From: Bacteroidota bacterium
Lineage (GTDB): Bacteria; Bacteroidota; Bacteroidia; Bacteroidales; VadinHA17
Direction: 5' to 3'
Assembly (NCBI GenBank): GCA_034659155.1
Contig: JAYEGO010000328.1
Location: forward strand, 1-35,038
Length of the DNA: 35,038 bases
Shown piece by piece: positions 1 through 25,061 of the stretch. The notes below the pieces were generated by a model that saw nothing but the letters and a program-made list of their open reading frames with translations, did no database searches and was not told the DNA's origin. Within the stretch, counting starts at the first letter, position 1; the number at the start of each line of letters is the position of its first letter. A program made the translations under genes and the position numbers.

Positions 1-1
1 A

Positions 2-316
2 GGGGGAATTTTTCTATTCCTTGGAGGCCTGGGAATTGTAAGAATGCCGGATGCCTATAATCGTTTGCAGGCAGGTACAAAAGCTACTACCCTTGGAGGT
101 ATGAGCCTGATACTCGGAGTTGGCCTGATGGAAACTTCCTGGCTGATAAAAGCTATGGTGATTATTATATTTATTGCTTTTTCCAACCCAATTAGCTCGC
201 ATGCTCTTGCCAGGGCAAATTATAAGCGCAAGAACTTTCCTTACCTGAAAAATGAAAAAGGAGTGGATGCTTATCAGGAGGCTTATTTAAATGAAAACAA
301 GGAGGAACAATCATGA
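2..316 (+). CDS. Mrp/Mnh antiporter subunit G-like membrane protein (MbxC/MbhC-type), 5' end outside the window
   Basis: The frame is open from the window edge (GGIFLFLGGLGIVRMPDAYNRLQAGTKATTLGGMSLILGVGL). This matches the MnhG/PhaG signature G-x-x-R-x-PD-x-Y-x-R-L-x-A...T-x-G. The stop overlaps the next start (ATGA at 313-316). Confidence 0.8.
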   Translation, partial: GGIFLFLGGLGIVRMPDAYNRLQAGTKATTLGGMSLILGVGLMETSWLIKAMVIIIFIAFSNPISSHALARANYKRKNFPYLKNEKGVDAYQEAYLNENKEEQS

Positions 317-585
317 TTATATACTTGATATTTCTATTTATACTGTTGGCCCTGATGGTTGGAGCTGCAGTTTATTCTATTCTACAAAAAGATCTTCTTT
401 ATGCAGTGATAGGAACCGGGGTTATTAGCCTTGTGCTTTCGGTTTTATTTTTCATACTTCAGGCACCAGATGTAGCACTTACTGAAGCAGCCATTGGGGT
501 AGCTCTTACAACCATTATCTTCATTATAACCATAAGAAATACGGTTAGATATGAAGATGAACGTGACCGGAAGGAAAATAAATAA
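313..585 (+). CDS. DUF4040 / MbhD-MbxD-type small membrane subunit (MrpB N-terminal-like)
   Basis: 90 aa with about 3 TM helices. The motif LQAPDVALTEAAIGVALTT is typical of DUF4040. The start is translationally coupled to the previous gene. Confidence 0.75.
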   Translation: MIIYLIFLFILLALMVGAAVYSILQKDLLYAVIGTGVISLVLSVLFFILQAPDVALTEAAIGVALTTIIFIITIRNTVRYEDERDRKENK

Positions 586-601
586 TTAAAAATCAGATAA
601 G

Positions 602-1297
602 GTGAAAAAAGTACTGGTTCTATTGCTTTTAGTTGTTTTTGGGGTTTATCTGGCAGATGTGTTGTTCAGCCTGGAATTTGGCAAACAGTTTTTTACAGAT
701 GGGGTAAAGGATTTTTATCTTACAAAAGGCCCTATGGATTTGAAAGTTTCCAACACTATTACAGCTATCATTGTAAACTTCAGAGGTTTTGACACCCTGG
801 GTGAGGTTACTGTTTTGTTTCTAGCTACCACCGCAATGGGGGGTATCTTATATAAGAAAAGACATAAAGTAGGGGCGCGCACGGTTTTATTTCCTTCCAG
901 CCAAATTGTAATGGCAGGTTCAAAAATTTTGTTTCCGGCCATCATACTTTTAGGAATATATGTATTTGTGCACGGCCATCTTACTCCCGGGGGTGGATTT
1001 CAGGGGGGAACTATAGTTGCCACAGGATTTTTATTGATGCTATTGGCATACCAGGATTATACTGTAAGTCACAAAGTTTTGACCATAGTAGAATCATTTG
1101 CCGGAATCACTTTTGTGGTAATTGGTTTAATGGGGCTGATAAAAGGAAGCACTTTTCTTGAAAATTTCATGCCGGTGGGAAGCTTGAATAATTTATTCAG
1201 CGGAGGCCTTATTCCTATTATTTATATTGTTGTTGGACTTAAAGTAGGTGCAGAGCTATCCGGCTTGATATATACTGCCTTGCACGAAAAAGATTAA
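602..1297 (+). CDS. MnhB/MrpB-domain membrane subunit (MbxF-type)
   Basis: GTG start. ITAIIVNFRGFDTLGEVTVLF is the hallmark of the MnhB domain. The protein is polytopic. Confidence 0.8.
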   Translation: MKKVLVLLLLVVFGVYLADVLFSLEFGKQFFTDGVKDFYLTKGPMDLKVSNTITAIIVNFRGFDTLGEVTVLFLATTAMGGILYKKRHKVGARTVLFPSSQIVMAGSKILFPAIILLGIYVFVHGHLTPGGGFQGGTIVATGFLLMLLAYQDYTVSHKVLTIVESFAGITFVVIGLMGLIKGSTFLENFMPVGSLNNLFSGGLIPIIYIVVGLKVGAELSGLIYTALHEKD

Positions 1298-1301
1298 GGA
1301 T

Positions 1302-1715
1302 ATGGATCAAATAAATTTTGATATTAGCATTGTAGAGTATGGCTTTTTTATCTCAGCTGTCCTGGTAATACTAATTGGACTGTATGGAGCGTTGGTAAAA
1401 AAATCCCTGATTAAAATTGTTATCGGACTCTCTATCCTTGAATCCGGGGTTAATCTTCTGTTAATAACAATTGGTTATATCCAGGGAGGTACTGCTCCTG
1501 TTTTTTCGCCACAACTACTTAAGGATATGCCCTTAACATTTGAAAATATTAGAAACCTTGGAAATGAAATGGTAGATCCTGTTCCTCAAGCCCTGGTATT
1601 GACAGCCATTGTAATTGGCTTTGGAGTAACAGCTGTTGCTCTTGCCCTGGTAATCAGGTTATACAGGCATCATCATACACTTGTTATTGACGAAATAAAG
1701 AATTTAAAATGGTAG
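1302..1715 (+). CDS. MnhC/NuoK-like membrane subunit (MbxG-type)
   Basis: 137 aa with 3 TM helices. LIGLYGALVKKSLIKIVIGLSILESGVNLLLITIGY resembles the MnhC/NuoK family, including the intramembrane Glu. Confidence 0.8.
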   Translation: MDQINFDISIVEYGFFISAVLVILIGLYGALVKKSLIKIVIGLSILESGVNLLLITIGYIQGGTAPVFSPQLLKDMPLTFENIRNLGNEMVDPVPQALVLTAIVIGFGVTAVALALVIRLYRHHHTLVIDEIKNLKW

Positions 1716-3202
1716 GAAGCCCTATTCTTTTTGTGGCCGTTCCCCTGTTGGCGGCATTTCTGATTCCCCTGCTCGGTTTTATCTGGAAAGAGCTGGTGCG
1801 AATAGTTCCCGGAATCGTGCTTTTGTATTTATTGATATTATCTGTTAGCCTTTACATCCAGGTACTTCAGGATGGGACTATTGTTGAACAAATTGGTGGC
1901 TGGGCTCCTCCCTGGGGAATAAACCTGGTTTTTAGTCCTTTTACAGGCTTGCTGACTACTTTAATGTTATTCCTTGCCTTTATCATCTGGATGTATAGCT
2001 ACCGTTTTAAGAATGTTGATTTTGAGCCATCAAAAAAATATTTTATTCTCCTGTTAATGCTGGTTACCGGTTCCATAGGAATTGTGCTTACCGGAGACAT
2101 TTTTAACCAGTTTGTGTTTATAGAAATTATGAGCATTTCGGGATATGCCCTTACGGCTTTTTATACAGGTCGTGACAGTGCAGAAGCATCTTTTAAATAC
2201 TTAATAATGGGTTCATTATCAGGTATGTTCTTACTCCTGGCCATTATTCTAATATACTCTCAACTTGGAACTTTAAATATGGCTGAAATTGCTTCTAAAG
2301 CACATTTAATGAAGCCGGAATTCAGAGTTCTTGCTTTAGTATTTTTTATCGTGGGCATGGGAATTGAAGCTGAAATATTTCCACTCAATGGCTGGGCTCC
2401 TGATGCGTATTCACAAGCTCCCGGACCAATTGGAGCCGCTTTTTCTGGGATTGTAGTCAAAGCTGGAATTTATTCCATTATCAGGGTAACTTTTACTCTT
2501 TTCGATGTTGAAGGTTCCATGCAATTCCTTGTACTGATGGGAATGATTACCCTGGTGGTAGCAGAAATAGCTGCCATAAAGCAGGATAAAATAAAAAGAA
2601 TGCTTGCTTATTCCAGCATTGGCCAGATGGGGCTGGTTCTTGTAGCCTTCGGCATTGGTACTGAAGAAGGTGTTTTTGCCGCTTTATTTTTAATGGTAAA
2701 TCATGCCCTCATTAAGCCTCTTCTGTTTCTTTCCGGTAGTTACCTTGTATTTAACTCTACGGAAAAAAACATACGTGAGCTTAGTGGCCTGGGGAAATAT
2801 TTGCCGCTTACATCTTTCTTGTTTGCCCTGGGAGCTATTGCCATTGTGGGGATGCCGCCATTGTCGGGTTTTTGGGCTAAATGGTCTATGCTTACAGCTG
2901 CAGCAAATTCAAATATGATCCTGGTCATTGGACTTGTATTGATGGTTAGTATCGTAGAAATTGTTTATTACTTCAGGGTGGTTAACCGCATCTATTTCTT
3001 CAAGAAGGAAGAAGATGTTGAACCAAAAAAACCCACTTTAAATGCAATGGCATCCATGATTGTACTGGGGATTCTTATTGTTGCCATTGGGTTTTATCCT
3101 GATCTCATTACCTCTTATCTGCATGAAGCTTCAGAAAGTTTAATGGATAAGGGAAAATATATTCAAGATGTTCTTTCTGCAGGACAGTCAATAATTCAAT
3201 AA
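1709..3202 (+). CDS. Antiporter-like proton/sodium-pumping subunit 1 (MnhD/NuoN/HyfB family; MbxH-like)
   Basis: 497 aa, polytopic. Family motifs: EAEIFPLNGWAPDAY, KRMLAYSSIGQMG, HALIKPLLFL, MPPLSGFWAKW. The start overlaps the previous stop by 7 nt. Confidence 0.85.
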   Translation: MVGSPILFVAVPLLAAFLIPLLGFIWKELVRIVPGIVLLYLLILSVSLYIQVLQDGTIVEQIGGWAPPWGINLVFSPFTGLLTTLMLFLAFIIWMYSYRFKNVDFEPSKKYFILLLMLVTGSIGIVLTGDIFNQFVFIEIMSISGYALTAFYTGRDSAEASFKYLIMGSLSGMFLLLAIILIYSQLGTLNMAEIASKAHLMKPEFRVLALVFFIVGMGIEAEIFPLNGWAPDAYSQAPGPIGAAFSGIVVKAGIYSIIRVTFTLFDVEGSMQFLVLMGMITLVVAEIAAIKQDKIKRMLAYSSIGQMGLVLVAFGIGTEEGVFAALFLMVNHALIKPLLFLSGSYLVFNSTEKNIRELSGLGKYLPLTSFLFALGAIAIVGMPPLSGFWAKWSMLTAAANSNMILVIGLVLMVSIVEIVYYFRVVNRIYFFKKEEDVEPKKPTLNAMASMIVLGILIVAIGFYPDLITSYLHEASESLMDKGKYIQDVLSAGQSIIQ

Positions 3203-3213
3203 GCCAATAGAAG

Positions 3214-5064
3214 ATGAACAGTATAGTTTTAATATTTGGTATATTTCTGGGTGGAGCAATCCTCACTTACCTTGCTCATAAGCTTTCGTATATTTTAAGC
3301 AGTGCATTTTTTGTTTTAACAATTTTTACGGCAGCTGCTCTATTTTTTTTGAAAGTGGAAATAGGAGATGTTTTTTCATTTTCCCTTAATGGTTTATACC
3401 TGGAATGGGGTATTACCCCTTTTAGCTGGATTTTCACTCTCATTGTACTTGGGTTGGGAACCATGGCTGCAGTGTATAGTGTTTCCTTTATGAAAGGGAA
3501 AGACCGGCTGGGATATTTTTATTTCAATTTTATTCTTGGCATTTTTTCCATGATGGGTATCCTGTTAAGCAGGGATCTGGTTTCTTTTTTCATTTTCTGG
3601 GAAATTATGACCTGGTCTTCATACATGATTGTTGTTTATGAAGGTAAATCGGTACAGAAGACTGGCATTAAATATATATTTTTCAGTGCTGTAGGTGCCT
3701 ATGCCATGCTAATGGCTATTGTTATAAGTTATGGCCAAATTCACAGTGTACTTATAGAAGACTTAATTTACTCGTTTTCATCATTTTCATTATCCTATCA
3801 AATCTGGCTACCTCTGTTATTCCTAACAGGGTTTGGTGTAAAAGCTGCCATGATGCCTTTACATGTTTGGGCTCCAGGAGCTTATAGTCACTCCCCAATG
3901 GCATATACATCAGTGTTTTCCGGAGCACTCTCAAAAATGGGCGTATATGGTATGGTACTGGTTTTCGCAAGCCTTCTTACGCAACTCCCCGAGCATACAT
4001 TAATTCGGGAAGTCGTAGCCTGGTTAGGTGCTATAACCACTGTTATGGGAACTTTGTGGGCAGTTGCGCAAGACGATGCAAAAAAATTACTGGCTTATTC
4101 TTCAGTTGCCCAGCTAGGTTATATTATTGTTGGGGTAGCAATTGGCACAGAGCTTTCAATGTTGGCAGCAATTTTTATGTCAGTGCTTCATGCATTATTT
4201 AAGGGAACCCTGTTTATGGTTGTTGGGGCTATTGAAAAACAAACCGGCACTACCAACTTAACTGAAGTAACCGGGCTGATAAGAAAAATGCCATGGACAT
4301 TTATTGCCGCCCTGATGTCTATCATTGCCCTGGCAGGAATTCCTCCTCTTGGTGGTTTTGTCGGCAAATGGATGCTTTACGAGTCATTGATAGGAAGTGA
4401 TCATTATATTCTGGTAATACTCATATTTTTTGCCAGTACTGCAGGGTTCCTTTATTGCTATAAATTCTTGTTTGGATTCTTCCTCGGACAGGAGGAAAAA
4501 GAATGGGATCATGTAAAAGAAGCTCCTGCCTCTATGGTAATACCCATGCTTATTCTTTCTTTCTTTTCTTTTTTATTGGGAACCTTCCCAGGCCTGATAT
4601 TAAAACCTATAGATCAGGGAATGCAAAGCCTGGGCTACGCTGCTACAGAAGGTCATTATTGGGATATGTCTGTTTTATTTAATGAATGGGGAAATGCTGT
4701 GATGCTTCAACCAATTCTCTATGCAATTATGGCCGTATTCCTTTTCTTTTTGATCTTTTTAACTCTTAAAAGTTTTAAAGGAACAAGGTATGTAACTACT
4801 AAAGATATCAGTAGTTCAGGTGAAGTTCCGGGAGAATTTGAAAATCTTTCTTTTAAAGAAAACTTTTTTCAGCCATTCTTACGTGCAGTGGAACCTGTAA
4901 TGAAAAAGCAAATTGACAAGTATTATACAGCTATTGGAAACGGAATTGAAGCCTTTTTTAACTATGCCAGGCGAGTTTATAGTGGCAATGGACAAACCTA
5001 TGCCATCTATGTTATTGTTTTCCTTGTGATCTTATTGTTATTTAAGAGCAATTTGTTTGGATAA
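3214..5064 (+). CDS. Antiporter-like pumping subunit 2 with C-terminal extension (NuoL/MnhA/MnhD family; MbxH'-like)
   Basis: 616 aa. Motifs: VKAAMMPLHVWAPGAY, KKLLAYSSVAQLGY, HALFKGTLFM, IPPLGGFVGKW. The C-terminus has one TM helix, then about 70 polar/amphipathic residues, then a final TM helix. Confidence 0.85.
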   Translation: MNSIVLIFGIFLGGAILTYLAHKLSYILSSAFFVLTIFTAAALFFLKVEIGDVFSFSLNGLYLEWGITPFSWIFTLIVLGLGTMAAVYSVSFMKGKDRLGYFYFNFILGIFSMMGILLSRDLVSFFIFWEIMTWSSYMIVVYEGKSVQKTGIKYIFFSAVGAYAMLMAIVISYGQIHSVLIEDLIYSFSSFSLSYQIWLPLLFLTGFGVKAAMMPLHVWAPGAYSHSPMAYTSVFSGALSKMGVYGMVLVFASLLTQLPEHTLIREVVAWLGAITTVMGTLWAVAQDDAKKLLAYSSVAQLGYIIVGVAIGTELSMLAAIFMSVLHALFKGTLFMVVGAIEKQTGTTNLTEVTGLIRKMPWTFIAALMSIIALAGIPPLGGFVGKWMLYESLIGSDHYILVILIFFASTAGFLYCYKFLFGFFLGQEEKEWDHVKEAPASMVIPMLILSFFSFLLGTFPGLILKPIDQGMQSLGYAATEGHYWDMSVLFNEWGNAVMLQPILYAIMAVFLFFLIFLTLKSFKGTRYVTTKDISSSGEVPGEFENLSFKENFFQPFLRAVEPVMKKQIDKYYTAIGNGIEAFFNYARRVYSGNGQTYAIYVIVFLVILLLFKSNLFG

Positions 5065-5079
5065 AAAAAATTAAAATAC

Positions 5080-5991
5080 ATGGAGTCTATGGTATATAAT
5101 ATTGCAGGAGCCCTTGTTACACTTATTCTTGCATTTGTAGTTGGAATGACCTACATGGGGCTTAGCCGGAAGATTACGGCAAGAATTCAAAACAGATATG
5201 GCCCTCCATTTTATCAAAATTTCATTGATGCTGTAAAACTCTTATCTAAGAGTACAGCAATTCATCATGGATTAATGCAACACATGGGACCGGCATTTAT
5301 TATGGTTACTTCAGTGTTATCCTTGATGATAATCCCGATTTTAAATGGGAATGCATTCTTTACCAATATGAATTTTCATGGGGACCTTATTTTTCTATTA
5401 TATATAATGACTTTTGGTCCACTGGGAATGGCTCTTGGTGCAGGTCAAACAGGGAATCCTAATTCTGCGATAGGTGTAACACGTGGCCTAAGCCAGATGG
5501 TTGGTTTTGAAATACCATGGGTTATGGCCATTATTGCTTTGATGATCCAGTTTGATACCAGCTCTATTGTGGATATTATGGACATTCAGGTTGCATCAGG
5601 GAAATGGATAATGTTTACTTCACCCTTCGCTTTTGTGGCAGCCCTGTTGGCGATGTTCGGGATGTTCCGTTATTCTCCGTTTGACATTGTTGGAGCACCA
5701 ACAGAGCTGGCTTCTGGTCCTGTATCTGAAAATGGAGGGAAGTACCTCTTTACCCTCATGTCAGCAAATTCAATCTTTGCTTTTGCAAAACTCACATTGT
5801 ATGTAAATCTTTTCATGGGAGGTGCTGACAACTTGGTTATACTACTAGTAAAAACATTTGCCCTGTATATGATTCCTTTACTTTATGGTACGGTAAATCC
5901 ACGATACAGAACAGAACAGGCAGTCAGATATTTTTGGGGATGGCCCAGTTTTTTTGGCTTGCTGGCAATTCTTTACGCTGTTTTTTTATAA
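5080..5991 (+). CDS. NuoH/HycD/MbhM-like membrane subunit (MbxM-type)
   Basis: RKITARIQNRYGPPFYQNFIDAVKLLSK is the conserved N-terminal NuoH/ND1 motif. About 8 TM helices. Confidence 0.85.
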   Translation: MESMVYNIAGALVTLILAFVVGMTYMGLSRKITARIQNRYGPPFYQNFIDAVKLLSKSTAIHHGLMQHMGPAFIMVTSVLSLMIIPILNGNAFFTNMNFHGDLIFLLYIMTFGPLGMALGAGQTGNPNSAIGVTRGLSQMVGFEIPWVMAIIALMIQFDTSSIVDIMDIQVASGKWIMFTSPFAFVAALLAMFGMFRYSPFDIVGAPTELASGPVSENGGKYLFTLMSANSIFAFAKLTLYVNLFMGGADNLVILLVKTFALYMIPLLYGTVNPRYRTEQAVRYFWGWPSFFGLLAILYAVFL

Positions 5992-6002
5992 AAAGTACAG
6001 AC

Positions 6003-6548
6003 ATGTTTAACGATAAGAATTCTCAAAAAATAGTTGATATCATCCAGAATCATGCCAGGAAACATTCCCTCTGGGTCTTGGCTTATGGTACAGGTTGTGG
6101 TGCTATTGAAATACCTCCTACCATGACTTCGAGGTATGATGCTGAACGATTGGGTGTGAGGGGAGCTGCCACACCAAGACAGGCTGATCTTTTGCTGATT
6201 ACAGGATATCTGACTACTAAAACTCTGAAAAGGGTTATTCGTGTTTATGAGCAAATGCAAGATCCCAAATATGTGATTGGATTCGGTTCCTGTACTATTA
6301 ATGGTGGTATGTATTATGATTCTTATAACACCATAAATGCATTGGATCGCTACCTTCCTGTAGATGTTTATATAAATGGTTGTATGCCGCGACCCGAAGC
6401 AGTGATTGCAGGTTTTGGCATGCTGCAGGAATTAATTGCTGCAGGAAAAGCCAATGGCGCCACGAAGTATAAAGAAAATCTTGACTGGTATCGTAAAAAC
6501 CAGCTGAAAGTGATCCCCAACTGGGTGATGCCTGAGTATAACTGGTAG
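6003..6548 (+). CDS. NuoB / [NiFe]-hydrogenase small-subunit-like Fe-S protein with only three Cys (MbxJ-type)
   Basis: Motifs GTGCGAIE (canonical GLACCAVE), GFGSCTINGG and INGCMPRPE. The start is taken at the ATG at 6003, just after the NuoH-like stop; the ORF-track start at 5934 overlaps that gene by 58 nt. Confidence 0.85.
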   Translation: MFNDKNSQKIVDIIQNHARKHSLWVLAYGTGCGAIEIPPTMTSRYDAERLGVRGAATPRQADLLLITGYLTTKTLKRVIRVYEQMQDPKYVIGFGSCTINGGMYYDSYNTINALDRYLPVDVYINGCMPRPEAVIAGFGMLQELIAAGKANGATKYKENLDWYRKNQLKVIPNWVMPEYNW

Positions 6549-6589
6549 GAAATATTATTAATAAGAACTTGTTCTAAAACAGACAAGGA

Positions 6590-7156
6590 ATGAAAGAGAA
6601 AAAAGCGAAACTAATTGAGCAGGTAAAAAGTCATTTTTCCGCAGCAAGCGAAAATAATTTTGATTATAACCGGCTCGATTTTACAATCAATAAGGAGGCC
6701 GTATCGTCTATTTTATTTTACTTAAAAGAAGAAATGGGATACGTCCATCTTTCTCATATTAGCTGTGTAGACTGGATTGAGGAAGAAGAATTTGAGTTGG
6801 TTTTTATCATCTGGTCACCTGTTGATAGAATAAAAGTATTCATTCATACCCGTATTGACAGGAATAATCCTGTAATGGATAATCTTGATATGATCTGGAG
6901 GCAGGCTAATACTTATGAACGGGAGATAAAAGAAATGTATGGCATTGAATTTCCCGGATTGGAGGCTCCGGCCGATTTTCTGCTTGAAGATTGGAATGGG
7001 ATGCCTCCAATGCGCAGGGATTTTGATTCGCTGGCTTATGCTAAAGACACATTTTATGATCGCCCCGGAAGGGAAGATGCCAGGGATGTCAGGGAAGAAA
7101 TTGCGCGTCGCTCCGGAGAAGAGATACCTGATTTTGCAAAAAAATATTCCAGATAA
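6590..7156 (+). CDS. NuoC/30-kDa-subunit-like protein (MbxK-type)
   Basis: WRQANTYEREIKEMYGIEFPGLEAP matches the NuoC signature ERE-x2-(D/E)M-x-GI-x-F. The stop abuts the next ATG. Confidence 0.85.
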   Translation: MKEKKAKLIEQVKSHFSAASENNFDYNRLDFTINKEAVSSILFYLKEEMGYVHLSHISCVDWIEEEEFELVFIIWSPVDRIKVFIHTRIDRNNPVMDNLDMIWRQANTYEREIKEMYGIEFPGLEAPADFLLEDWNGMPPMRRDFDSLAYAKDTFYDRPGREDARDVREEIARRSGEEIPDFAKKYSR

Positions 7157-8260
7157 ATGAGAGAAAAAGCAACAACCTTATATATCGGGCCACAGCACCC
7201 GGGGATTACTGGAAATATGATGGTTCGCCTGAAGGTGGAAGGAGATACTATTGTTAAAGCTACCACAGAAGTAGGTTATCTTCATCGTTCCTTTGAGAAA
7301 TTAGCTGAAAAGAGAAACTGGTTGCAAACCTTTACTTTAATGTGCAGGTTTTGCGTTCCTGAACCTGACCCGGTTGAAGAAACTTATTCGCGTGCCGTTG
7401 AACTGCTGGAAGGACGTTCTGTTCCTGAGAAGGCTAAATTTTTACGTGTACTGGTACTGGAATTAGCCAGGATTTCTTCCTATCTTCTTTGGTATGGTGG
7501 ACAGGGAGCCTCCCTGGGTCTGTATACTATCGGCCAGTGGAGTGTTGGAGATCGAAATTATATCCTGGATCTTTTTGAAGAACTTACAGGTGCCAGGATA
7601 TATCATATGTTTATCTGGCCGGGAGGCGTACGAAGAGATATGCCGGATGGATTTGAAAAAAGGGTATTGAAAACCATGGATTACCTGGAAAGCAGGCTTG
7701 ATGATTATGAAGCCCTTATGTTTGACAATGCCATTTTTAAGAAAAGAACACAGGGCGTAGCTATCATAGATAAAGAAAAGGCCATAGAATGGGGTGTGGT
7801 AGGTCCTCCTTTAAGAGGCTGTGGAATTAAAAGCGATATACGTATTGATGATCCTTATGAGGTGTATGATCAACTTGATTTTGATGTGCCAACTTATGAA
7901 GGAGGAGATATTTGGGCCCGGGCACTTGTACGAAGAGATGAATTAAGACAATCTATTCGAATTGTAAGGCAGGTTATTGCCAAAATGCCCGGAGGTTCTT
8001 ATTATAATAAAGTGCCTAATCCTCAAAAGTGGACAATGCCTAAAGGAGATGCATATGCCCGTACTGAGGCTGTTCGTGGCGAAATAGGTTTTTATGTGGC
8101 CAGTGATGGAGGAACCAATCCCAGGCGTGCTCATATGAGAGGAGCCGCTTATGTTCACGGAATTACCCTGCTTGAAGATATGCTCAAAGGAGCTAACATA
8201 GCAGATGTTTCATCAATAATGAATAGCCTGGGGACTTGTCCACCGGAAATAGAACGCTAA
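7157..8260 (+). CDS. NuoD / group-4 [NiFe]-hydrogenase large-subunit-like catalytic subunit (MbxL-type), incomplete Ni-Fe ligand set
   Basis: IGPQHPGITGN is the N-terminal beta-hairpin motif. LMCRFC (C63, C66; nt 7343-7354) lies where RxCGxC is expected. The C-terminal GTCPPEIER lies where DPCxxCxxR is expected: C361 (nt 8237-8239) is kept and the fourth Cys is replaced by Glu. Confidence 0.85.
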   Translation: MREKATTLYIGPQHPGITGNMMVRLKVEGDTIVKATTEVGYLHRSFEKLAEKRNWLQTFTLMCRFCVPEPDPVEETYSRAVELLEGRSVPEKAKFLRVLVLELARISSYLLWYGGQGASLGLYTIGQWSVGDRNYILDLFEELTGARIYHMFIWPGGVRRDMPDGFEKRVLKTMDYLESRLDDYEALMFDNAIFKKRTQGVAIIDKEKAIEWGVVGPPLRGCGIKSDIRIDDPYEVYDQLDFDVPTYEGGDIWARALVRRDELRQSIRIVRQVIAKMPGGSYYNKVPNPQKWTMPKGDAYARTEAVRGEIGFYVASDGGTNPRRAHMRGAAYVHGITLLEDMLKGANIADVSSIMNSLGTCPPEIER

Positions 8261-8273
8261 AGTTTGTTAAAAT

Positions 8274-10070
8274 ATGAGTTTTTTTGATTTAAAAGGAACA
8301 TTGAGCCCCTTAACTGCCCTGAAGCAGTTCGGGAAAAAGCCACATACAATTGAATATCCAAAAGTGGATAAAGAAGCTGCTGATCGTTACCGGGGTTTCC
8401 ATTATAATGAACTGGAGGAATGTATTGGTTGTGGTAATTGTTCAACAATATGTCAGAATGCAGCCATTGATATGATACAGGTTGAGGGACAGGAAGGCTC
8501 AAATGGAGACTCAGGTTTAAGGCCTCGTGTTGATAATGGAAGGTGTTGCTGGTGCGGATTATGTGTAGATGTATGTCCTACAGGAAGCTTGAGTCTCACC
8601 AAAGAGTATCTGTATGTAAGTGATGACCCTGATTCTTTTTTATTTACTCCAGGAGTAGATAATCCAAAAGGAAAAGACAAACTATCTTTCTTTAGTACAA
8701 AAGAAGCCAGTCTGAACGATTTTGCAAGAATTCCTATGCCGGAGCTAGAAGGAAAAGATAGAATAAAATCCTTTGCAGAAGTGGTACTTGGATACAATGA
8801 GGAGCAGGCACGGGCAGAAGCAAGCCGGTGTATAAGTTGTGGCCTGTGTAGTGAAGCATGCCCCGAGCATATGCATATCCCGGAATATATCAATGCTATA
8901 GCCAGTGGGAACGATAAAGATGCAGTACGGATTATATATGATAACAACCCCCTGCCTGAAATGTGCGGTAAAGTTTGTACCCGTAGGTGCGAGGATGTTT
9001 GTGCAATACAAACCCGTGGTGATGCACTGGCTATTCGCTGGTTGAAGAGATATGCAACGGAGACAGCTGAAAATGCTGATATTGTTAAAGAAATTGTTAA
9101 TCCCGAGATCAAAGAGGCCAATGGTTATAAGGTGGGAATTGTAGGAGCAGGACCTTCTGGCTTAACAGCTGCCTATTATCTTGCCCTTCGTGGGTTTGAT
9201 GTTAGCATTTACGAGTCAAATAAACAGGCGGGAGGTATGACCATGTATGGTATTCCAAAATACCGCTTCCCGGAAAATAGCCTGCAGAAACAAATTGATT
9301 ATATTACTTCTATTGGTGTGAAAATCCATTTCAGTACCCAGGTAGGAAAAGACATTAGCTTTGAGGAGATTTATAAGCAAAGTGATGCTGTATTTATGGG
9401 TGTTGGCTTCCTGAAACCATGGACACTTGGCATTGAGGGAGAGGAGTTGAAGGGCTCAGGACAGGCGGTGACATTCTTGCATGCTGTAAACAGTGGCTTG
9501 CAGGTAGATATTGGAAATAAAGTAGCGGTTATTGGTGGTGGTAATGTTGCAATTGATGCTGCTCGTGTATCTGCACGACTTGGAGCAGAAGTAAGTATCC
9601 TTTATCGTAGAAGGGTTGAAGACATGCCAGCTGACTGGGAGGAAATTGAAGGAGCCGAGGATGAGGGTATACACATTGAACCACAAGCCATTCCTATTAA
9701 GTTCCATAGTGATGAAAATGGCAGAATTATGTCAGTGGAATACCTGAAAGCGGAAATGGTGGTTGATGAAGCCGGTGGAAGACCAAAGCCAGTAGCCATT
9801 GAAGGCAGCAATACAATTATGGAAATAACTGCCATACTGGGAGCTATTGGTCAGCAAGGAGATTACAGCTTCCTGGAAGGCGAGTTTGCTGAAAAAATAA
9901 AAGTCGACAGGGGAAGAATTGTAGTAAATGATAATCAACAAACTACCGATCCTAAAGTCTTTGCCGGAGGTGATGCAGTGAATCGCACCGCAGATGCTAT
10001 CTCTGCCATTGCAGATGGATTTCGTGCTGTGAAAGGTATTGAAGAAATGCTGGTAAAGAAAAAGAAGTAA
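8274..10070 (+). CDS. Fusion protein: NuoI/MbhN-type 2x[4Fe-4S] ferredoxin subunit (aa ~1-115) joined to a GltD/SudA/NfnB-type Fe-S flavoprotein, an NAD(P)H oxidoreductase (aa ~150-598)
   Basis: N-terminal part: CIGCGNCSTIC and CCWCGLCVDVCP. C-terminal part: RCISCGLCSEACPEHMHIPEYI...LPEMCGKVCTRRCEDVC (GltD N-terminal Fe-S region), VGIVGAGPSGLTAAYYL (FAD), VAVIGGGNVAIDAAR (NAD(P)H) and VFAGGDA. It is one uninterrupted 598-codon ORF. Confidence 0.9.
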   Translation: MSFFDLKGTLSPLTALKQFGKKPHTIEYPKVDKEAADRYRGFHYNELEECIGCGNCSTICQNAAIDMIQVEGQEGSNGDSGLRPRVDNGRCCWCGLCVDVCPTGSLSLTKEYLYVSDDPDSFLFTPGVDNPKGKDKLSFFSTKEASLNDFARIPMPELEGKDRIKSFAEVVLGYNEEQARAEASRCISCGLCSEACPEHMHIPEYINAIASGNDKDAVRIIYDNNPLPEMCGKVCTRRCEDVCAIQTRGDALAIRWLKRYATETAENADIVKEIVNPEIKEANGYKVGIVGAGPSGLTAAYYLALRGFDVSIYESNKQAGGMTMYGIPKYRFPENSLQKQIDYITSIGVKIHFSTQVGKDISFEEIYKQSDAVFMGVGFLKPWTLGIEGEELKGSGQAVTFLHAVNSGLQVDIGNKVAVIGGGNVAIDAARVSARLGAEVSILYRRRVEDMPADWEEIEGAEDEGIHIEPQAIPIKFHSDENGRIMSVEYLKAEMVVDEAGGRPKPVAIEGSNTIMEITAILGAIGQQGDYSFLEGEFAEKIKVDRGRIVVNDNQQTTDPKVFAGGDAVNRTADAISAIADGFRAVKGIEEMLVKKKK

Positions 10071-10084
10071 AACAAGACTATATA

Positions 10085-10117
10085 ACTCACCGGGTGACTC
10101 GTAGTCACCCGGTGAGT
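10085..10117. terminator. Bidirectional stem-loop terminator between convergent genes
   Basis: Perfect 15-bp inverted repeat ACTCACCGGGTGACT / AGTCACCCGGTGAGT with a 3-nt loop, 15 nt after the + strand stop and 6 nt after the - strand stop. No strong T-tract. Confidence 0.6.
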
Positions 10118-10122
10118 GGATT

Positions 10123-10473
10123 CTATTCAAATTCTTTAGGAACCCCACAAATCAGCACCAATGATTTATCCCGGGATTTATTCCGGTACTGATGTTTCTC
10201 GTTTGGCTTAACAAGCGCAAAATCTCCTGCCTGAATCGGAGTTTCTTTTCCTGCCTCATTTACCAGTGCCCCTTCCCCTTCAATTATATAATTCATGTGC
10301 TCATAATTGTGCTGATGGTAGGGAGTATAACCTCCGGGATCAACGGTAAATACCCTGTATGAGTAAACAGGAGCACCATCATCCCTGGAAAGAGGAACCT
10401 GCTTCCATGCCTTATGTGCACCCTCCATGTTTACTTTATTCTTTTCAACTTTTTTTAGCGATATAACTTTCAT
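10123..10473 (-). CDS. Small cupin-domain protein
   Basis: 116 aa. The two cupin motifs are GGYTPYHQHNYEHMNYIIEGEG and GDFALVKPNEKHQYRN. Confidence 0.75.
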   Translation of the reverse strand: MKVISLKKVEKNKVNMEGAHKAWKQVPLSRDDGAPVYSYRVFTVDPGGYTPYHQHNYEHMNYIIEGEGALVNEAGKETPIQAGDFALVKPNEKHQYRNKSRDKSLVLICGVPKEFE

Positions 10474-10540
10474 GTGTTAATGTTTTATTTTCTAATAGCA
10501 AAATTAGTAACATTTGATAAAGGCGGTATATAGATAATAG

Positions 10541-10569
10541 AAAAAAAAGCAACCTGCTTCAGCAGGGTG
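10541..10569 (-). terminator. Candidate rho-independent terminator (- strand)
   Basis: On the - strand the hairpin CCTGC-TGAA-GCAGG is followed by TTGC and T8 (A8 at 10541-10548 on +). It lies about 220 nt downstream of the LacI-family stop. Confidence 0.4.
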
Positions 10570-10791
10570 TTGGAAGAAAATGAAATATGTATGATGAGTC
10601 AGCTTTAAGCTGACTTTTTATTATAGTATAAAGTACGCTGAAGCGTACTGAATACATTTGTTTGCTAACATTTTACACCATGCTGAAGCATGGTGCTGTT
10701 TTTATTTCTTACATTCATCGTCAAGGTTTTATAGTCCCATCAGTTTATTAAGGATTGGAAAAAAAACACAGCAAACTGGAATCTATCAGAA

Positions 10792-11805
10792 TTACCTCCG
10801 TGAAGAGCCTTTGACAATGAATTTGGTTTCAATTACCCTGGTTATGGCGGGATATTCTTCTTCTTTTTCAAGACGATCAATCAGTAATTGCGCAGCTTCT
10901 TTGCCAATTTCATATCCATGTTGCTCAACCGTGCTTAATGAAGGATCTGTCAGATCTGAAATTATCCCATTTGTAAATCCAATAATTGAAATATCTTCAG
11001 GAACATTTAAACCATTTTCTTTCACAATTTTAAGTGCCGCAGCTGCAGTTAGATCATTGACTGCAAAAAAGCCATCCGGGCGAGGACTTTGCTTTAAAAA
11101 TCCGGGAATAATATTGATGGTATCTTCTACGGAATCACATTTTACGATCAAGTCCAGGTCTACTTCCATTTGATTACTTTCAAGAGCCCTGATATATCCT
11201 TGTTTTCGGTTTTGAGAAATAAGCATATGCCCGGGAGCGCTCAAATGTACAATTCTCCGGCAACCCGTTTTGATCATGTGATTTACAGCCTGAAAAGCAC
11301 CTTCTTCATCATCAACAATTACACGATCTGTTTTAATTTCCTTGCAGATCCTGTCAAAAAAAACCAATGGAACTCCAACATCCATTATTTTCCTGAAATG
11401 GTCTGTATCCCTGGTATTTTTGGATGTGGAAACCAATATTCCTTCCACCCTGCTGGACAATAAAGCATCTACATTTTGAACTTCTCTTTCAAAAGATTCA
11501 TTCGATTCGCATACCATAACATTGTAGCCTGATTTATATGCCAGATCTTCAATCCCATGTATGACAGTTGAAAAAAAATAGTGAACAATTTCAGGAACAA
11601 TGATTCCGATAATCTTACTTTTGCGACTTTTTAAACTTAAAGCAATGGGATCTGGAGTATAGTTTAATTTTTCAGCCAGTTCATTTACAGCTTTTTTGGT
11701 ATCCGGACTTATATCTGGGTGATCTTTTAATGCCCTGGAAACTGTAGATGGAGATATTCCCAGTTCCTTTGCAATATCTTTTATGGTGACCCTTCCTTTG
11801 TGCAT
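10792..11805 (-). CDS. LacI-family transcriptional regulator (probable maltodextrin/starch locus regulator)
   Basis: N-terminal HTH VTIKDIAKELGISPSTVSRALKD followed by a periplasmic-binding-protein-like sugar-binding fold. It is divergent from susC. Confidence 0.9.
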   Translation of the reverse strand: MHKGRVTIKDIAKELGISPSTVSRALKDHPDISPDTKKAVNELAEKLNYTPDPIALSLKSRKSKIIGIIVPEIVHYFFSTVIHGIEDLAYKSGYNVMVCESNESFEREVQNVDALLSSRVEGILVSTSKNTRDTDHFRKIMDVGVPLVFFDRICKEIKTDRVIVDDEEGAFQAVNHMIKTGCRRIVHLSAPGHMLISQNRKQGYIRALESNQMEVDLDLIVKCDSVEDTINIIPGFLKQSPRPDGFFAVNDLTAAAALKIVKENGLNVPEDISIIGFTNGIISDLTDPSLSTVEQHGYEIGKEAAQLLIDRLEKEEEYPAITRVIETKFIVKGSSRR

Positions 11806-11857
11806 TTGAATACAAAAATACCAAAAAAAGTTTGTTTTTCAGCTTAAAACCTGATTT

Positions 11858-11881
11858 CAAACGTTTGCGGAGACGTTTGCG
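11858..11881. promoter_or_regulatory. Candidate LacI-family operator in the lacI/susC divergent promoter region
   Basis: CAAACGTTTG is a perfect 10-nt palindrome at 11858-11867. The half-site ACGTTTGCG is repeated at 11861-11869 and 11873-11881. The 12-mer CAAACGTTTGCG is identical to 32171-32182. Confidence 0.5.
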
Positions 11882-11923
11882 TTAAATTATTGAAAATTAG
11901 CATGATAATACCTTTATTCTCTT

Positions 11924-11931
11924 TAAATTTG
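11924..11931 (+). promoter_or_regulatory. Candidate Bacteroidota -7 promoter box (TAnnTTTG) upstream of susC
   Basis: TAAATTTG matches the TAnnTTTG consensus about 100 nt upstream of the susC ATG. No well-spaced -33 TTG was seen. Confidence 0.3.
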
Positions 11932-12034
11932 TGTGGAAATTAAAACTACCTAAACTTAATTTATTGGGTTTTATCATCAGATTCATTTAGCCTATTACCC
12001 AAAAGAAAAGTTACAAATTCATAATTCAGATAAT

Positions 12035-14998
12035 ATGAAAACAAGATTTAGTAAGGTACAATACCTGCTTTTTACACTTTTATTATTCGTGTCAATCCTG
12101 CAGGGCTATGCACAGGTAAGTATTTCAGGGGTAGTTACAGACAAAAAGGACGGTATGCCTCTACCGGGTGTTACTATTATGCTGAAAGGAACCCAGGCAG
12201 GAACCATTACCAACATTGACGGAGAATTCACCCTCAGTGCAGATGCCAATGCCACTTTGGTTTTTTCATATGTCGGTTTTGCCAGTGTAGAAGTGGCACT
12301 TGAAGGCAGAACAAGTTTAAATATTCAACTTGAGGAATCTTATTTGGAGATTGGAGAGGTAATAACAATTGGGTATGGAACACAGAAGAAAAGCGATAAG
12401 ACGGGAGCAGTAGCCAATATTGATGCTGATGAACTAAATTACGGGGTGGCTACTGATCCTATTCAGGGGATACAGGGGAAATCTGCCGGGGTTTCTGTTA
12501 CCAAAAAAGGTGGTGACCCAAATACTGGTTTTTCGGTTAAAATACGTGGTTCTTCAGGTTTGTATTCAGGAACAGATCCCCTTTATGTTGTTGATGGAGT
12601 TCCGGGTGTGGATCCTACAACAATAGCTGCTGATGACATTGAATCTTACAATATTCTTAAGGATGCTTCATCCACTGCAATTTATGGCTCAAGAGGGGCA
12701 AATGGTGTAATTATAATAACTACCAAGAAAGGAAGTTACAAAAGGCCAAATACTGTGGAATTTAATTCTTATGTCTCTATGGACCAGGTTGCCAACAGGC
12801 TTGATCTGCTGAGTGCAGATGAGTTAAGGCAATACGCCATTGATAACAGCCTTACATTCAATGATGGGGAAGCCGATACAGATTGGCAGGATGAAATTTT
12901 CAGGACAGGCTTATCCCAATCATATAATCTTGCTGCTTCAGGTGGAGGACAAAACTCAGCCTATCGTGTTTCTGTAACACATGTTGATTTTAAAGGGGTT
13001 GTTATTGGATCTCAAAAAGAAAGAACTGTAGGACGAATCAATATGAGCCAGAAAGCAATAAACGATAAACTCCAGATCCAGGCTTCCATTGCAGGGACTT
13101 TTGAACAGAATGAATATATACAATATAGCGGTAGTGGCCCTAATGATGTTTTATACCAGGCATACCAGCGTAATCCAACCGATCCTGTGAAAAATGAAGA
13201 TGGTTCCTATTATGAAATACAAAGGGACTTTAACTACTATAACCCTGTAGCCCTGGCAAATGATATTCAAAATGAAAGAGATGCGAAAAGATTTCTGGGG
13301 AATATGAGAATGGATTTTGAAATTATCAGTGGACTTACGGCCGGTGTGAATCTTGCTTATACCAGGGACGATTCCGAGAGTTTTTATTTTGAGCCAAGTT
13401 ATGTAAGGGGAAGCACTTCTACAGGCTATGGAAGAAGAGGTTATGGAAATTTTTCTCAGAAGATCCTGGAAACTACGCTTACGTATAATACCAGCATCAA
13501 TGAAGTTCATAACCTGAACCTTGTGGGAGGTTATTCATTTCAGCAGGATAATTATGATGGATTTTCAGCCCAGGGCACAGAGCCCCTTTCTGATTATGTA
13601 ATGTCGCATAACCTTGGTGTTTTAAATAATGTAAAAGTTGGGGACATTGCTTCATATAAAGGCTCTAACCGTCTTATTTCCTTTTTTGGACGGGCAGTTT
13701 ACAACTATGATTCAAGGTATTATTTTACCGCTACAGTACGTAGGGATGGTTCCTCAAGATTTGGTGACAATAATGAATGGGGCTGGTTCCCTTCAGCTTC
13801 ATTAGCCTGGAATTTAAAAAGAGAATCATTCCTGGAAAATGTTAGTGTACTTGAACAACTAAAGCTAAGGCTTGGATTTGGGCTATCCGGAAACCAGGAA
13901 ATAGGAAATTATAATGATATCGTTGCTGCTGTTCCTTCCGGACCTACAATTAATCCGGAAACGGGAGAGGATGCAATTTTATTCCAGATGTCTCATAACG
14001 CAAATCCTGATTTAAAATGGGAAGAAAATTCCGAGTTGAATATTGGAGTAGATTTTGGTTTTTTCTCAAACAGACTATCCGGCTCACTTGAATATTATAA
14101 TAAAACAACCTATGACCTGATTGCGCCATATGCAGTTCCTGTTCCACCTAACTCTGTTCCTACTACCTGGGCAAATGCAGGAAAAATAAGCAACCAGGGG
14201 TTTGAAGCCTTTATACAGGGATTTATTTTTAATGAACGAAATTTTGACTGGAAATCAAGTATAGTTTTTTCAACCAATAAACAAAAGGTAATTTCCCTTT
14301 CCAATGATGATTATGAATGGACTGAGGGTGACAAAAAGCAGGGGTGGCTTTCAGGAAGGGGCCTTGTTGGAGACGAGAACTGGACCCAGTTGGTGGAAGA
14401 GGGTTATGAGTTGGGAACCTATTATATGCCTGAATATGCAGGTCTTTCTTCCGATGGGAAATTCCTGTTCTATACAGAGGCTGGTGGTGTAACAAGAAAT
14501 GTGGCAGATGCTGAGAGAAGAGTTGTTGGACATGCACTTCCTGATTTTGAATTAGGCTGGTCAAACTATTTCACCCTTTACAAGAATTTTGATATTAGCT
14601 TTGTTTTGCGGGCTGTTGTAGGATCTGATGTTCTGAATGTAACACGCATGGTTTTTGCCAATCCTACTGTATTGCCCTCTTTGAACGGACTTGCCGAAGT
14701 GCTTGATGAGGTAGAAAGAGGAGTTGATGATTTTCCAAAAGTAAATTCATACTACCTGGAAGACGGTAGCTTTTTAAAACTGGATAACCTTACAGTTGGT
14801 TATAATTTTGACATAACAACTATTGATTGGCTTCAAAAATTACGTGTTTATGTGGTTGGAAACAATCTATTAACATTGACACGATATACAGGCATAGATC
14901 CTGAGATATCTTATAATGGCCTGTCTTTTGGTTTGGACCAATACAATACCTATCCAAAGGTTCGCAGTTTTACCATGGGTGTAAATGTTACATTTTAA
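12035..14998 (+). CDS. susC: SusC/RagA-family TonB-dependent outer-membrane transporter
   Basis: Signal peptide, then a CarboxypepD_reg-like domain (VSISGVVTDKKDGMPLPGVTIMLKGT). Plug motifs are ITIGYGTQKK and NILKDASSTAIYGSRGANGVIIITTKKG. The beta-barrel ends in VNVTF. A SusD gene follows immediately. Confidence 0.95.
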   Translation: MKTRFSKVQYLLFTLLLFVSILQGYAQVSISGVVTDKKDGMPLPGVTIMLKGTQAGTITNIDGEFTLSADANATLVFSYVGFASVEVALEGRTSLNIQLEESYLEIGEVITIGYGTQKKSDKTGAVANIDADELNYGVATDPIQGIQGKSAGVSVTKKGGDPNTGFSVKIRGSSGLYSGTDPLYVVDGVPGVDPTTIAADDIESYNILKDASSTAIYGSRGANGVIIITTKKGSYKRPNTVEFNSYVSMDQVANRLDLLSADELRQYAIDNSLTFNDGEADTDWQDEIFRTGLSQSYNLAASGGGQNSAYRVSVTHVDFKGVVIGSQKERTVGRINMSQKAINDKLQIQASIAGTFEQNEYIQYSGSGPNDVLYQAYQRNPTDPVKNEDGSYYEIQRDFNYYNPVALANDIQNERDAKRFLGNMRMDFEIISGLTAGVNLAYTRDDSESFYFEPSYVRGSTSTGYGRRGYGNFSQKILETTLTYNTSINEVHNLNLVGGYSFQQDNYDGFSAQGTEPLSDYVMSHNLGVLNNVKVGDIASYKGSNRLISFFGRAVYNYDSRYYFTATVRRDGSSRFGDNNEWGWFPSASLAWNLKRESFLENVSVLEQLKLRLGFGLSGNQEIGNYNDIVAAVPSGPTINPETGEDAILFQMSHNANPDLKWEENSELNIGVDFGFFSNRLSGSLEYYNKTTYDLIAPYAVPVPPNSVPTTWANAGKISNQGFEAFIQGFIFNERNFDWKSSIVFSTNKQKVISLSNDDYEWTEGDKKQGWLSGRGLVGDENWTQLVEEGYELGTYYMPEYAGLSSDGKFLFYTEAGGVTRNVADAERRVVGHALPDFELGWSNYFTLYKNFDISFVLRAVVGSDVLNVTRMVFANPTVLPSLNGLAEVLDEVERGVDDFPKVNSYYLEDGSFLKLDNLTVGYNFDITTIDWLQKLRVYVVGNNLLTLTRYTGIDPEISYNGLSFGLDQYNTYPKVRSFTMGVNVTF

Positions 14999-15037
14999 TA
15001 AGCAGGGATATCTGACCAGTAAAAATTTTATATACAG

Positions 15038-16528: not shown

Positions 16529-16638
16529 AAATTAATATAACTTTGCGCACGTTTTTACGTTTACACAAAGTTACATAGTAATATTTACTAATATGTTTAA
16601 TCTGAAACTGTTTATTAATTAACCAAATTTTAAAAAGT

Positions 16639-18108: not shown

Positions 18109-18124
18109 TTTTATTTGATATATT

Positions 18125-18157
18125 AAAAAAGGCTGTCCATGAGGCAGCCTTTTTTTT
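18125..18157 (+). terminator. Rho-independent terminator after the SusE/F-like gene
   Basis: A6, then GGCTG(T)CC-ATGA-GGCAGCC, then T8. It overlaps the ORF-track start at 18139, which supports ATG 18181 as the true start of the next gene. Confidence 0.7.
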
Positions 18158-18180
18158 CGATTTTTTTAAATTGGCTTATT

Positions 18181-20991: not shown

Positions 20992-21048
20992 CCATCTCCC
21001 CCCATTCTGGAGCCTTCACTCATAACCCAGCCCAATCAGAATGTGGGA

Positions 21049-22875: not shown

Positions 22876-22959
22876 TTCATTTAGACAAAATGATTGCTAT
22901 TTTTCGGGTTTGTTTTCTCAAGTGGACAAAATGGTTAAATCTGGCACAAAATGAAAAAA

Positions 22960-25035: not shown

Positions 25036-25061
25036 GTTTTTATAAAGATAATTTCTTCGGC

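Follow-up and report, generated by a model that had tools for sequence, protein, structure and literature searches.

What kind of membrane complex is encoded where Mrp antiporter-like genes run directly into complex I-like genes in a member of the Bacteroidota? This question is raised by a 35,038-nt stretch of DNA from a Bacteroidota bacterium of the VadinHA17 lineage (Bacteroidales; GenBank assembly GCA_034659155.1, contig JAYEGO010000328.1, positions 1 to 35,038, forward strand). The whole stretch is referred to here as the window, and the operon in question occupies its positions 1-10070, the 5' part of the first, mbsC-like gene being cut off by the window edge. An important point of reference is the sulfane reductase MBS of Pyrococcus furiosus, viewed as an intermediate step between the hydrogenases and complex I; work on it has been confined to this one hyperthermophilic archaeon. 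Bacterial MBX complexes have been read either as sulfur reductases or as ferredoxin:NADP+ oxidoreductases. The comparisons outlined below support the prediction that the operon encodes an MBS/MBX-type ion-translocating membrane oxidoreductase, with a Mrp-derived arm carrying two pumps and a NuoB/C/D/H/I-like arm. The function put forward as most likely is that of an NADP(H)-linked, ion-translocating sulfane-sulfur reductase.

Eleven plus-strand open reading frames (ORFs) fill positions 2-10070, with successive distances of -4, 16, 4, -7, 11, 15, 11, 41, 0 and 13 nt. From 5' to 3', their Pfam assignments are MnhG, MbhD/DUF4040, MbhE plus MnhB, MnhC, two pumps, NuoH, NuoB, NuoC, NuoD and a NuoI-like fusion, with E-values (1e-20 to 1e-80) far past chance. 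Pfam and the ORF list both agree with an initial annotation of this DNA, made from the letters alone, which had described eleven consecutive, overlapping or abutting genes in this order. It had also reported that NuoA/J and NuoE/F/G are missing, and no match to these Pfam families was found among the window ORFs tested (most ORFs above ~85 aa). The NuoB-like gene most likely starts at the ATG at 6003, for a predicted product of 181 aa as in relatives; the mechanically called ORF opens at a TTG at 5934. From C to N, the genes follow the MBS order (A-B-C-D-E-G-H-H'-M-J-K-L-N), with M ahead of J and two pump genes. The initial annotation had likewise read the NuoH-like gene ahead of the NuoB-like gene and the doubled pump as the Mbx/Mbs and not the mbh order, a view that the structural matches below support. 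The A (MNHE) and B (MrpF) genes fall beyond the 5' end of the window. In every related locus that reaches far enough, both are present, collinear and ahead of an mbsC gene whose full length is 119-121 aa, and the MnhE/MnhF-like genes for which the upstream DNA was to be inspected are thus seen in relatives. The complete collinear order A(MnhE)-B(MrpF)-C-D-E-G-H-H'-M-J-K-L-N(GltD) was found in 80 of 80 related loci that were fetched.

The assignment to MBS can be made from known structures. A PDB sequence search covered the operon proteins except the mbsC-like and mbsK-like ones, and for D, E, G, H, H', M, J and L the top solved structure was the cognate chain of P. furiosus MBS (6U8Y). The MBS chain exceeds the next best match by 24-145 bits across subunits (Table 1). 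For example, L scores 365 bits against MbsL, versus 244 for Nqo4, 149 for MbhL and 105 for HycE. In the case of the N domain (aa 10-116), MbsN is the best match among complex-I-type subunits (81 bits; next 49). The L protein was also queried against 1.84 billion representative proteins, and 135 full-length matches were aligned with the window L and P. furiosus MbsL. In the resulting neighbour-joining tree, which carries no bootstrap values, the window L joins a second Bacteroidota lineage and then P. furiosus MbsL, within a clade marked by two cysteines. NuoD-type (D-Y/V-E) and NiFe-type (CCCC) sequences lie outside this clade, with NuoD, NdhH and FpoD apart from the window L. The placement outside both complex I and the group 4 hydrogenases, on which the initial annotation depended, is therefore upheld by the PDB scores and by this unbootstrapped tree.

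Catalytic-site residues give a second line of evidence. The J loop aligns to that of MbsJ without gaps and at the same length (YGTGCGAIE versus FCTGCGGIE). It keeps the equivalents of MbsJ C28, C93 and C123, with no fourth loop cysteine, and the non-ligand C25 is absent. With only three ligand cysteines in the loop, a proximal cluster with one non-cysteinyl iron would be expected. The three-Cys motif is found in 74 of 74 J-motif matches (loci plus window) and also in a second architecture discussed below, and the three-Cys proximal cluster has been identified as the polysulfide-reducing site of MBS (PMC7684303). The window L retains the equivalents of MbsL C85 and C385 (RFCVPEPD; GTCPPEIER). 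Its four NiFe positions read C-E-C-E, and the positions of Nqo4 H38 and Y87 are occupied by T and V. An additional cysteine three residues ahead of the C85 equivalent creates a CRFC motif (residues 63-66, window 7343-7354), and 79 of the 81 relatives have a CxxC there. A possible new site for a metal or a disulfide, made of three L cysteines (CRFC plus the C-terminal Cys), was considered. This idea is weakened by the L of Prolixibacter, which has lost both vestigial cysteines so that the group is not universally conserved, and by the P. furiosus C85A/C385A mutant, which stays active (PMC7684303).

Because the MBS signature is kept (three Cys in J; two of four NiFe Cys and no quinone ligands in L), the complex is taken to be neither complex I nor a hydrogenase, identities ruled out, as far as sequence can tell, by the motifs, the PDB score margins and the tree together. 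The Nqo4-type His and Tyr are absent from L, and J lacks the tandem Cys-Cys of NuoB. The L1 (RxCGxC) and L2 (DPCxxC) pairs of the group 4 [NiFe]-hydrogenases each keep their first Cys only. Common ancestry and shared Pfam families might still point to a hydrogenase of the group 4 [NiFe] type, or to a stand-alone Mrp antiporter that lies beside an unrelated soluble Nuo-like module, but both are extremely improbable. A hydrogenase sits poorly with two of four NiFe cysteines here and none in Prolixibacter, and with the gap between the MbhL and MbsL scores. Likewise, the Mrp-like genes run into the Nuo-like ones, overlapping or adjoining them; 80 loci and the second architecture keep this arrangement, and the solved MBS complex contains Mrp-like subunits as integral parts. 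A scan of 1-12100 found no terminator-like site between the Mrp-like and Nuo-like genes comparable to the hairpin at 10085-10117 that follows the operon. A separate Mrp transcript, the outcome that would have split the unit proposed in the initial annotation, is ruled out by this lack of an internal site, by the gene spacing and by the conserved collinearity.

The last gene of the operon carries a further module. It had been annotated as a NuoI fusion with an unnamed partner; the fusion is borne out, and the partner can now be named as an NfnB/GltD-like NADPH flavoprotein. Profile and motif comparisons show the C-terminal ~450 aa to be an NfnB/SudA/GltD-type flavoprotein, predicted to hold two more [4Fe-4S] clusters, flavin adenine dinucleotide (FAD) and an NADPH-type site. 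Pfam detects Fer4_20 (100 bits) and Pyr_redox_2 (95 bits) in the fusion protein. In the PDB, aa 152-597 match the large subunit of P. furiosus NfnI (5JCA_L) at 317 bits, GltD at 198 and dihydropyrimidine dehydrogenase (DPD) at 130, and the top match of the whole protein is NfnI-L, not an MBS chain. Its motifs comprise three CxxCxxCxxxC, a GAGPSG (FAD) and a VIGGGNVAID...LYRRR that matches the NfnB NADPH site in alignment. The first cluster motif of the flavoprotein domain is the canonical CxxCxxCxxxCP, unlike the gapped NfnB form. The NCBIfam model NF010590 (PRK13984, "putative oxidoreductase") spans the fusion end to end (9-610/611), scoring 646 bits against a curated cut-off of 946. There is no NuoEFG, yet an NADP(H) module would be built in because the flavoprotein is fused to N; it probably acts as a functional stand-in for the N-module, which changes the likely donor or acceptor. 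An NfnA partner (PyrK-like, with FAD and [2Fe-2S]) was found neither in the window nor in most loci. In one Flavobacteriaceae metagenome-assembled genome (MAG; locus L076, 12275-14620), a bona fide NfnA-like/NfnB-like pair of the SudBA type lies between the N-GltD gene and a dihydroorotate dehydrogenase (DHOD)-like gene, all on the same strand with gaps of 5-25 nt.

The fused module can also be read as the input end of an alternative complex I, an NADPH:menaquinone oxidoreductase with this module in place of NuoEFG and with menaquinone reduction in the L/J/M pocket. Menaquinone is generally known to be used by Bacteroidota, and the energy from NADPH to menaquinone would amply power two pumps. 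In width, the MBS cavity matches the quinone cavity of complex I (PMC7684303). However, the T and V in place of Nqo4 His38 and Tyr87, the missing tandem Cys-Cys of J, the lack of NuoA and NuoJ and the clustering of L with MbsL instead of NuoD, NdhH or FpoD make this reading very unlikely.

How common is the complex? Judged by sequence matches, it is no rarity: the complex is widespread in Bacteroidota, in hundreds of genomes, and common in sediment and vent members. Full-length matches to the fusion protein at 73-100% identity make up more than 120 clusters, and all named ones are Bacteroidota (some labelled "Chlorobi"). In each of three homologue searches, wherever a name was given among the top 120 hits, it was likewise one of Bacteroidota. 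The carriers include the complete genome of Ca. Sulfidibacterium hydrothermale. A genome scan with L, using one genome per GTDB species, returned 211 matching stretches, the best 80 of which are 72-84% identical. The labels of these 80 are all Bacteroidota or the neighbouring Chlorobiota with the exception of one Sulfurovum (L049), and include Bacteroidales, Lentimicrobiaceae, Marinilabiliaceae, Saprospiraceae and Flavobacteriaceae. Many of the 80 come from hydrothermal or seep sediments, judged by isolate names. No record of the window L protein was found, and a 100%-identical N protein comes from a contig of 2.2 kb. The nearest long relative, L081 (N protein 89% identical), likewise begins in the F/G region. 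In several relatives (e.g., L010:11199-11594 and L030:1968-2852), the mbsL/mbsN-GltD junction holds a small unrelated gene, which belongs to the 23S-rRNA-intervening-sequence protein family in four loci and has a KilA-N domain in one.

Most relatives encode a further flavoprotein. Of the 48 loci whose upstream DNA is long enough, 37 have a DHOD-like gene of ~332 aa directly ahead of mbsA in the same orientation. Family clustering places it in 39 loci, with a 79-aa remnant in L003, and Ca. Sulfidibacterium also carries it. In the window's own genome, the corresponding gene would lie ~2 kb upstream of position 1. The family corresponds to NCBIfam PRK07565, "dihydroorotate dehydrogenase-like protein" (415 bits; cut-off 303). 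The motifs of the flavin mononucleotide (FMN) site of DHOD and DPD are kept, and the catalytic Cys is absent (LSCPH to LFIMP).

A second Bacteroidota architecture is represented by L084 and by L088 of the cultured Prolixibacter bellariivorans (BLAX01000001, 3627018-3648814), with an L 48% identical to that of the window. Its gene content is unchanged, at 42-65% identity for the individual subunits, with H and H' merged into one gene of ~1045 aa. Its N-GltD clusters are labelled Prolixibacteraceae, Marinilabiliales and Williamwhitmania. In both of the loci inspected, a Crp/Fnr-type regulator is divergently transcribed upstream and the DHOD-like gene lies directly 3' of N-GltD. The DHOD-like gene is thus the first operon gene in most close relatives and the last in the second architecture. 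In L076 its position is after the NfnA/NfnB pair, which in turn comes straight after the operon. In three neighbouring lineages, whose N is plain (156-197 aa), neither a GltD domain nor a DHOD-like gene was found in the available DNA, which is short for two of them. Since the DHOD-like and GltD-like proteins co-occur in different gene orders, this argues that the former may exchange electrons with the GltD/NfnB-like module, as happens in DPD. A literature search found neither a DHOD-like partner nor the two operon architectures described.

What would such a complex do? Electrons are proposed to travel along NADP(H) <-> FAD <-> 2x[4Fe-4S] <-> 2x[4Fe-4S] (N) <-> the proximal cluster (J). A hydrophobic, non-quinone acceptor, most likely sulfane sulfur, would then be reduced in the J/L/M pocket, and this reduction would drive export of H+ or Na+ via H, H' and the Mrp module. 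The cluster chain probably receives electrons from the ferredoxin of sugar fermentation as well, and the fused module may either add NADPH as a donor or siphon electrons to NADP+. In most relatives, the operon-encoded DHOD-like FMN protein could also exchange electrons with the GltD-like module, in an arrangement like that of DPD. Sulfane sulfur (polysulfide) is tentatively favoured as the acceptor, with a rough probability of 0.45, because of the invariant three-Cys cluster, the sulfidic habitats of the closest relatives and the induction of Thermotoga maritima mbxA by S0. These closest relatives are largely MAGs from hydrothermal or sulfidic sediment together with Ca. Sulfidibacterium hydrothermale, and T. 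maritima mbxA rises 4.4-fold with S0 (PMC9431562).

Several points weigh against a sulfane-sulfur reductase. The textbook potentials of NADPH (about -320 mV) and polysulfide (about -260 mV) differ by only ~60 mV, and transfer from one to the other would yield too little energy for two pumps and the Mrp module. Ferredoxin is therefore probably the main donor, and NADPH is unlikely to be the only one. Neither the window nor the loci inspected have genes of sulfur metabolism beside the operon. The Prolixibacter L keeps the additional cysteine of the CRFC motif and has lost both vestigial NiFe cysteines. The second architecture is found in ordinary mesophilic sediment fermenters, and Prolixibacter and similar cultured carriers are not known as sulfur reducers. 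The DHOD-like protein, whose role is purely putative, lacks the catalytic Cys.

The main rival, somewhat unlikely in our view, is the original MBX model of an ion-translocating, Rnf-like ferredoxin:NADP+ oxidoreductase. Ferredoxin from pyruvate oxidation would pass its electrons to the N/GltD cluster chain, NADP+ would be reduced at the fused FAD, and a drop of ~130-180 mV would drive ion export. Such a model needs exactly the kind of built-in NADP(H) site seen here. The gltD-like subunit of Thermotoga and proteobacterial operons has been read as the site of NADP+ reduction (Degli Esposti 2015, PMC4758237), and a Mesotoga preprint annotates Mbx in the same way (bioRxiv 10.1101/322537). The energy yield would suit ~1-2 ions, the carriers are sugar fermenters with polysaccharide utilisation loci, and the Crp/Fnr-type regulator adjoins the second architecture. 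However, this electron path would bypass the J/L/M pocket, whose chemistry drives coupling in complex I as well as in MBH and MBS, and would leave the strictly conserved three-Cys proximal cluster without a role. The same activity was first assigned to P. furiosus MBX, later shown to be a sulfane reductase (PMC7684303).

Alternatively, the complex could work by flavin-based bifurcation or confurcation, the NfnB-like FAD splitting or merging the electron flow between three parties: NADPH, a partner of low potential (either ferredoxin or the DHOD-like FMN protein) and an acceptor in the membrane arm. The flavoprotein domain is nearest to the bifurcating NfnI-L and to NfnB-like modules found in further bifurcating complexes (5JCA_L, 9N5U, 9BOV, 8OH5), a conserved FMN protein accompanies it in two gene orders, and the DHOD-like gene of L076 comes right after the NfnA/NfnB pair that follows the operon. 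Working against this, the window operon has no NfnA-like [2Fe-2S]/FAD partner, the first cluster motif is canonical and not of the gapped NfnB form, and the GltD and DPD modules of the same fold do not bifurcate; the reading is quite unlikely. A related alternative, to which we give an equally small chance, is a class of its own. A DPD/Nfn-like module (NfnB-type FAD, four [4Fe-4S] clusters and a DHOD-like FMN protein) would sit on an MBS membrane arm and couple NADPH, ferredoxin and a substrate of the FMN site to ion pumping, possibly by electron bifurcation.

The complex in Bacteroidota is of interest for its reach: it appears widespread in polysaccharide degraders of sulfidic sediments and vents, hard-wired to NADP(H) and usually accompanied by a DHOD-like flavoprotein. 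Because the cultured mesophile Prolixibacter bellariivorans carries it, the question of what bacterial MBX does can be tested without hyperthermophile biochemistry. If sulfane sulfur is reduced, carbohydrate fermentation by Bacteroidota would be linked to sulfide production and energy conservation.

The features of the operon are listed in Table 1, with the DHOD-like genes of five related loci.

Table 1. Genes and signals of the MBS/MBX-type operon (window coordinates) and DHOD-like genes of related loci (coordinates within each locus).
Feature	Position	Strand	Evidence
mbsC-like (MnhG/MrpG-like) membrane subunit, 5' partial	1..316 (ORF 2-316)	+	Pfam PhaG_MnhG_YufB 83 bits, profile 5-80/80; NCBIfam Na+/H+ antiporter subunit G
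mbsD-like (DUF4040/MbhD) membrane subunit	313..585	+	Pfam MbhD 72 bits; top PDB 6U8Y_D 77 bits vs 6CFW_D 53
mbsE-like, MbhE and MnhB domains in a single protein as in MbsE	602..1297	+	Pfam MnhB and MbhE; top PDB 6U8Y_E 188 bits, full length, vs MbhF 50
mbsG-like (MrpC/NuoK-like)	1302..1715	+	Pfam Oxidored_q2; top PDB 6U8Y_G 102 bits, next 78
mbsH-like antiporter-type pump (MrpD-like), 497 aa	1709..3202	+	Pfam Proton_antipo_M 211 bits; top PDB 6U8Y_H 363 bits vs MbhH 255
mbsH'-like second pump (MrpA-like), C-terminal extension, 616 aa	3214..5064	+	Pfam Proton_antipo_M; top PDB 6U8Y_X (MbsH', 618 aa) 308 bits, 49-608 on 49-614, vs MbhH 186
mbsM-like (NuoH-like), membrane anchor of the peripheral arm	5080..5991	+	Pfam NADHdh 178 bits; top PDB 6U8Y_M 152 bits vs MbhM 80
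mbsJ-like (NuoB-like), proximal [4Fe-4S] subunit	6003..6548	+	Pfam Oxidored_q6; top PDB 6U8Y_J 221 bits, 62% identity, next 134 bits
mbsK-like (NuoC-like)	6590..7156	+	Pfam Complex1_30kDa 86 bits; collinear in all related loci
mbsL-like (NuoD/NiFe-large-subunit-like)	7157..8260	+	Pfam Complex1_49kDa; top PDB 6U8Y_L 365 bits, 47% identity
mbsN-like 2x[4Fe-4S] domain (aa ~10-120) plus NfnB/SudA/GltD-like domain (aa ~150-598), 598 aa	8274..10070	+	Pfam Fer4_7/Fer4_21, Fer4_20 and Pyr_redox_2
15-bp GC-rich hairpin, likely bidirectional terminator, between convergent operon end and cupin gene	10085..10117	+	strongest terminator-like site, scan of 1-12100
DHOD-like gene of related loci	L001:1038-2039; L083:1-932; L084:13074-14054; L088:11987-12970; L076:14626-15618		

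Downstream of the operon, an alpha-glucan utilisation region fills the rest of the window (LacI, SusC/D/E-F, three GH13 amylases, GH65, a major facilitator superfamily (MFS) transporter and proteins bearing type IX secretion tails), from which the host is taken to be a Bacteroidota polysaccharide degrader. The sugar-degrading Bacteroidota host of the initial annotation is in keeping with these genes and with the nearest relatives, all of them Bacteroidota MAGs. A cupin-domain gene on the minus strand (10123-10473) converges on the operon end, a position kept in L081 and L082 and not in distant loci. In L081 (10417-14082), the cupin gene is followed directly by class II aldolase, DUF3836/type IX secretion system and YgjP genes; relative to L081, alpha-glucan blocks are interposed in the window at 10792-26840 (LacI-SusCDEF-GH13 and two more GH13) and at 28356-32023 (GH65 and MFS). 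Between two minus-strand genes, 1 kb (22595-23634) has no ORF of at least 60 aa and contains several GC-rich hairpins. Within it lies an element of ~330 nt (22940-23290) with a 17-bp closing stem and a folding z-score of about -6 on either strand. Rfam gave no hit to it even at E<=1, no tRNA was detected, and two metagenome scans held no copy of it.

The occurrence of such complexes in bacteria is not new in kind, because gltD-bearing mbx-like operons have already been described in Thermotoga and proteobacteria (PMC4758237). The initial annotation had placed biochemical characterisation in hyperthermophilic archaea only. This stands in so far as MBS has been characterised only in P. furiosus, and it had missed that bacterial operons were already described bioinformatically (PMC4758237). 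The Thermotoga, Mesotoga and proteobacterial operons, including the 'Mrp-Mbx' of Endoriftia (PMC4758237; PMC9431562; bioRxiv 10.1101/322537; PMC11636981), share with the window a Mrp plus Nuo-like operon whose NuoI-like subunit gives way to, or is linked with, a gltD-related flavoprotein. These bacterial operons have been annotated as ferredoxin:NADP+ oxidoreductases or sulfur reductases, with function or direction still labelled as unknown (PMC11636981). Compared by description only, the Thermotoga-type operons belong to another phylum, and neither the DHOD-like gene nor the two architectures were found there. A literature search, which left the Ca. Sulfidibacterium cultivation study aside, gave no paper tying Mbx to Bacteroidetes, and there appears to be no earlier report of the DHOD-like partner or of the two architectures.

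Among more distant systems, complex I/NDH-1/Fpo and the group 4 hydrogenases (MBH, Ech, Hyc) share the homologous NuoB/C/D/H/I-like arm and antiporter-like pumps, whereas the window operon has no NuoA/J/E/F/G, no quinone ligands and no CxxC NiFe motifs; the mbh operon differs further in having one pump and M after L. The large subunit of NfnAB/SudAB and GltD have the same Fer4_20, FAD and NADPH architecture as the C-terminal 450 aa, but the window operon has no NfnA/PyrK-like partner gene. All domain types of DPD (PreT/PreA) are present in relatives (GltD-like, DHOD-like and N-terminal 2x[4Fe-4S]), but here the ferredoxin-like domain is N-terminal and a homologue of MbsN, and the DHOD-like protein has no catalytic Cys. 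P. furiosus MBS (6U8Y, PMC7684303) remains the closest counterpart, alike in its subunit set and order, two pumps, the C-terminal extension of H', the single-protein E, the J loop length with three Cys ligands, and the retention of L C85/C385 with the quinone and NiFe residues gone. It differs in smaller ways, since the window J has no C25, the window L has the CRFC motif and the relatives' operons have a DHOD-like FMN gene. Its host is a hyperthermophilic archaeon, while that of the window is bacterial, has 39% GC and counts mesophiles among its named relatives. The main departure is found in the last subunit: MbsN has 208 aa and takes electrons from ferredoxin, whereas the N protein of the window has 598 aa and carries the flavoprotein.

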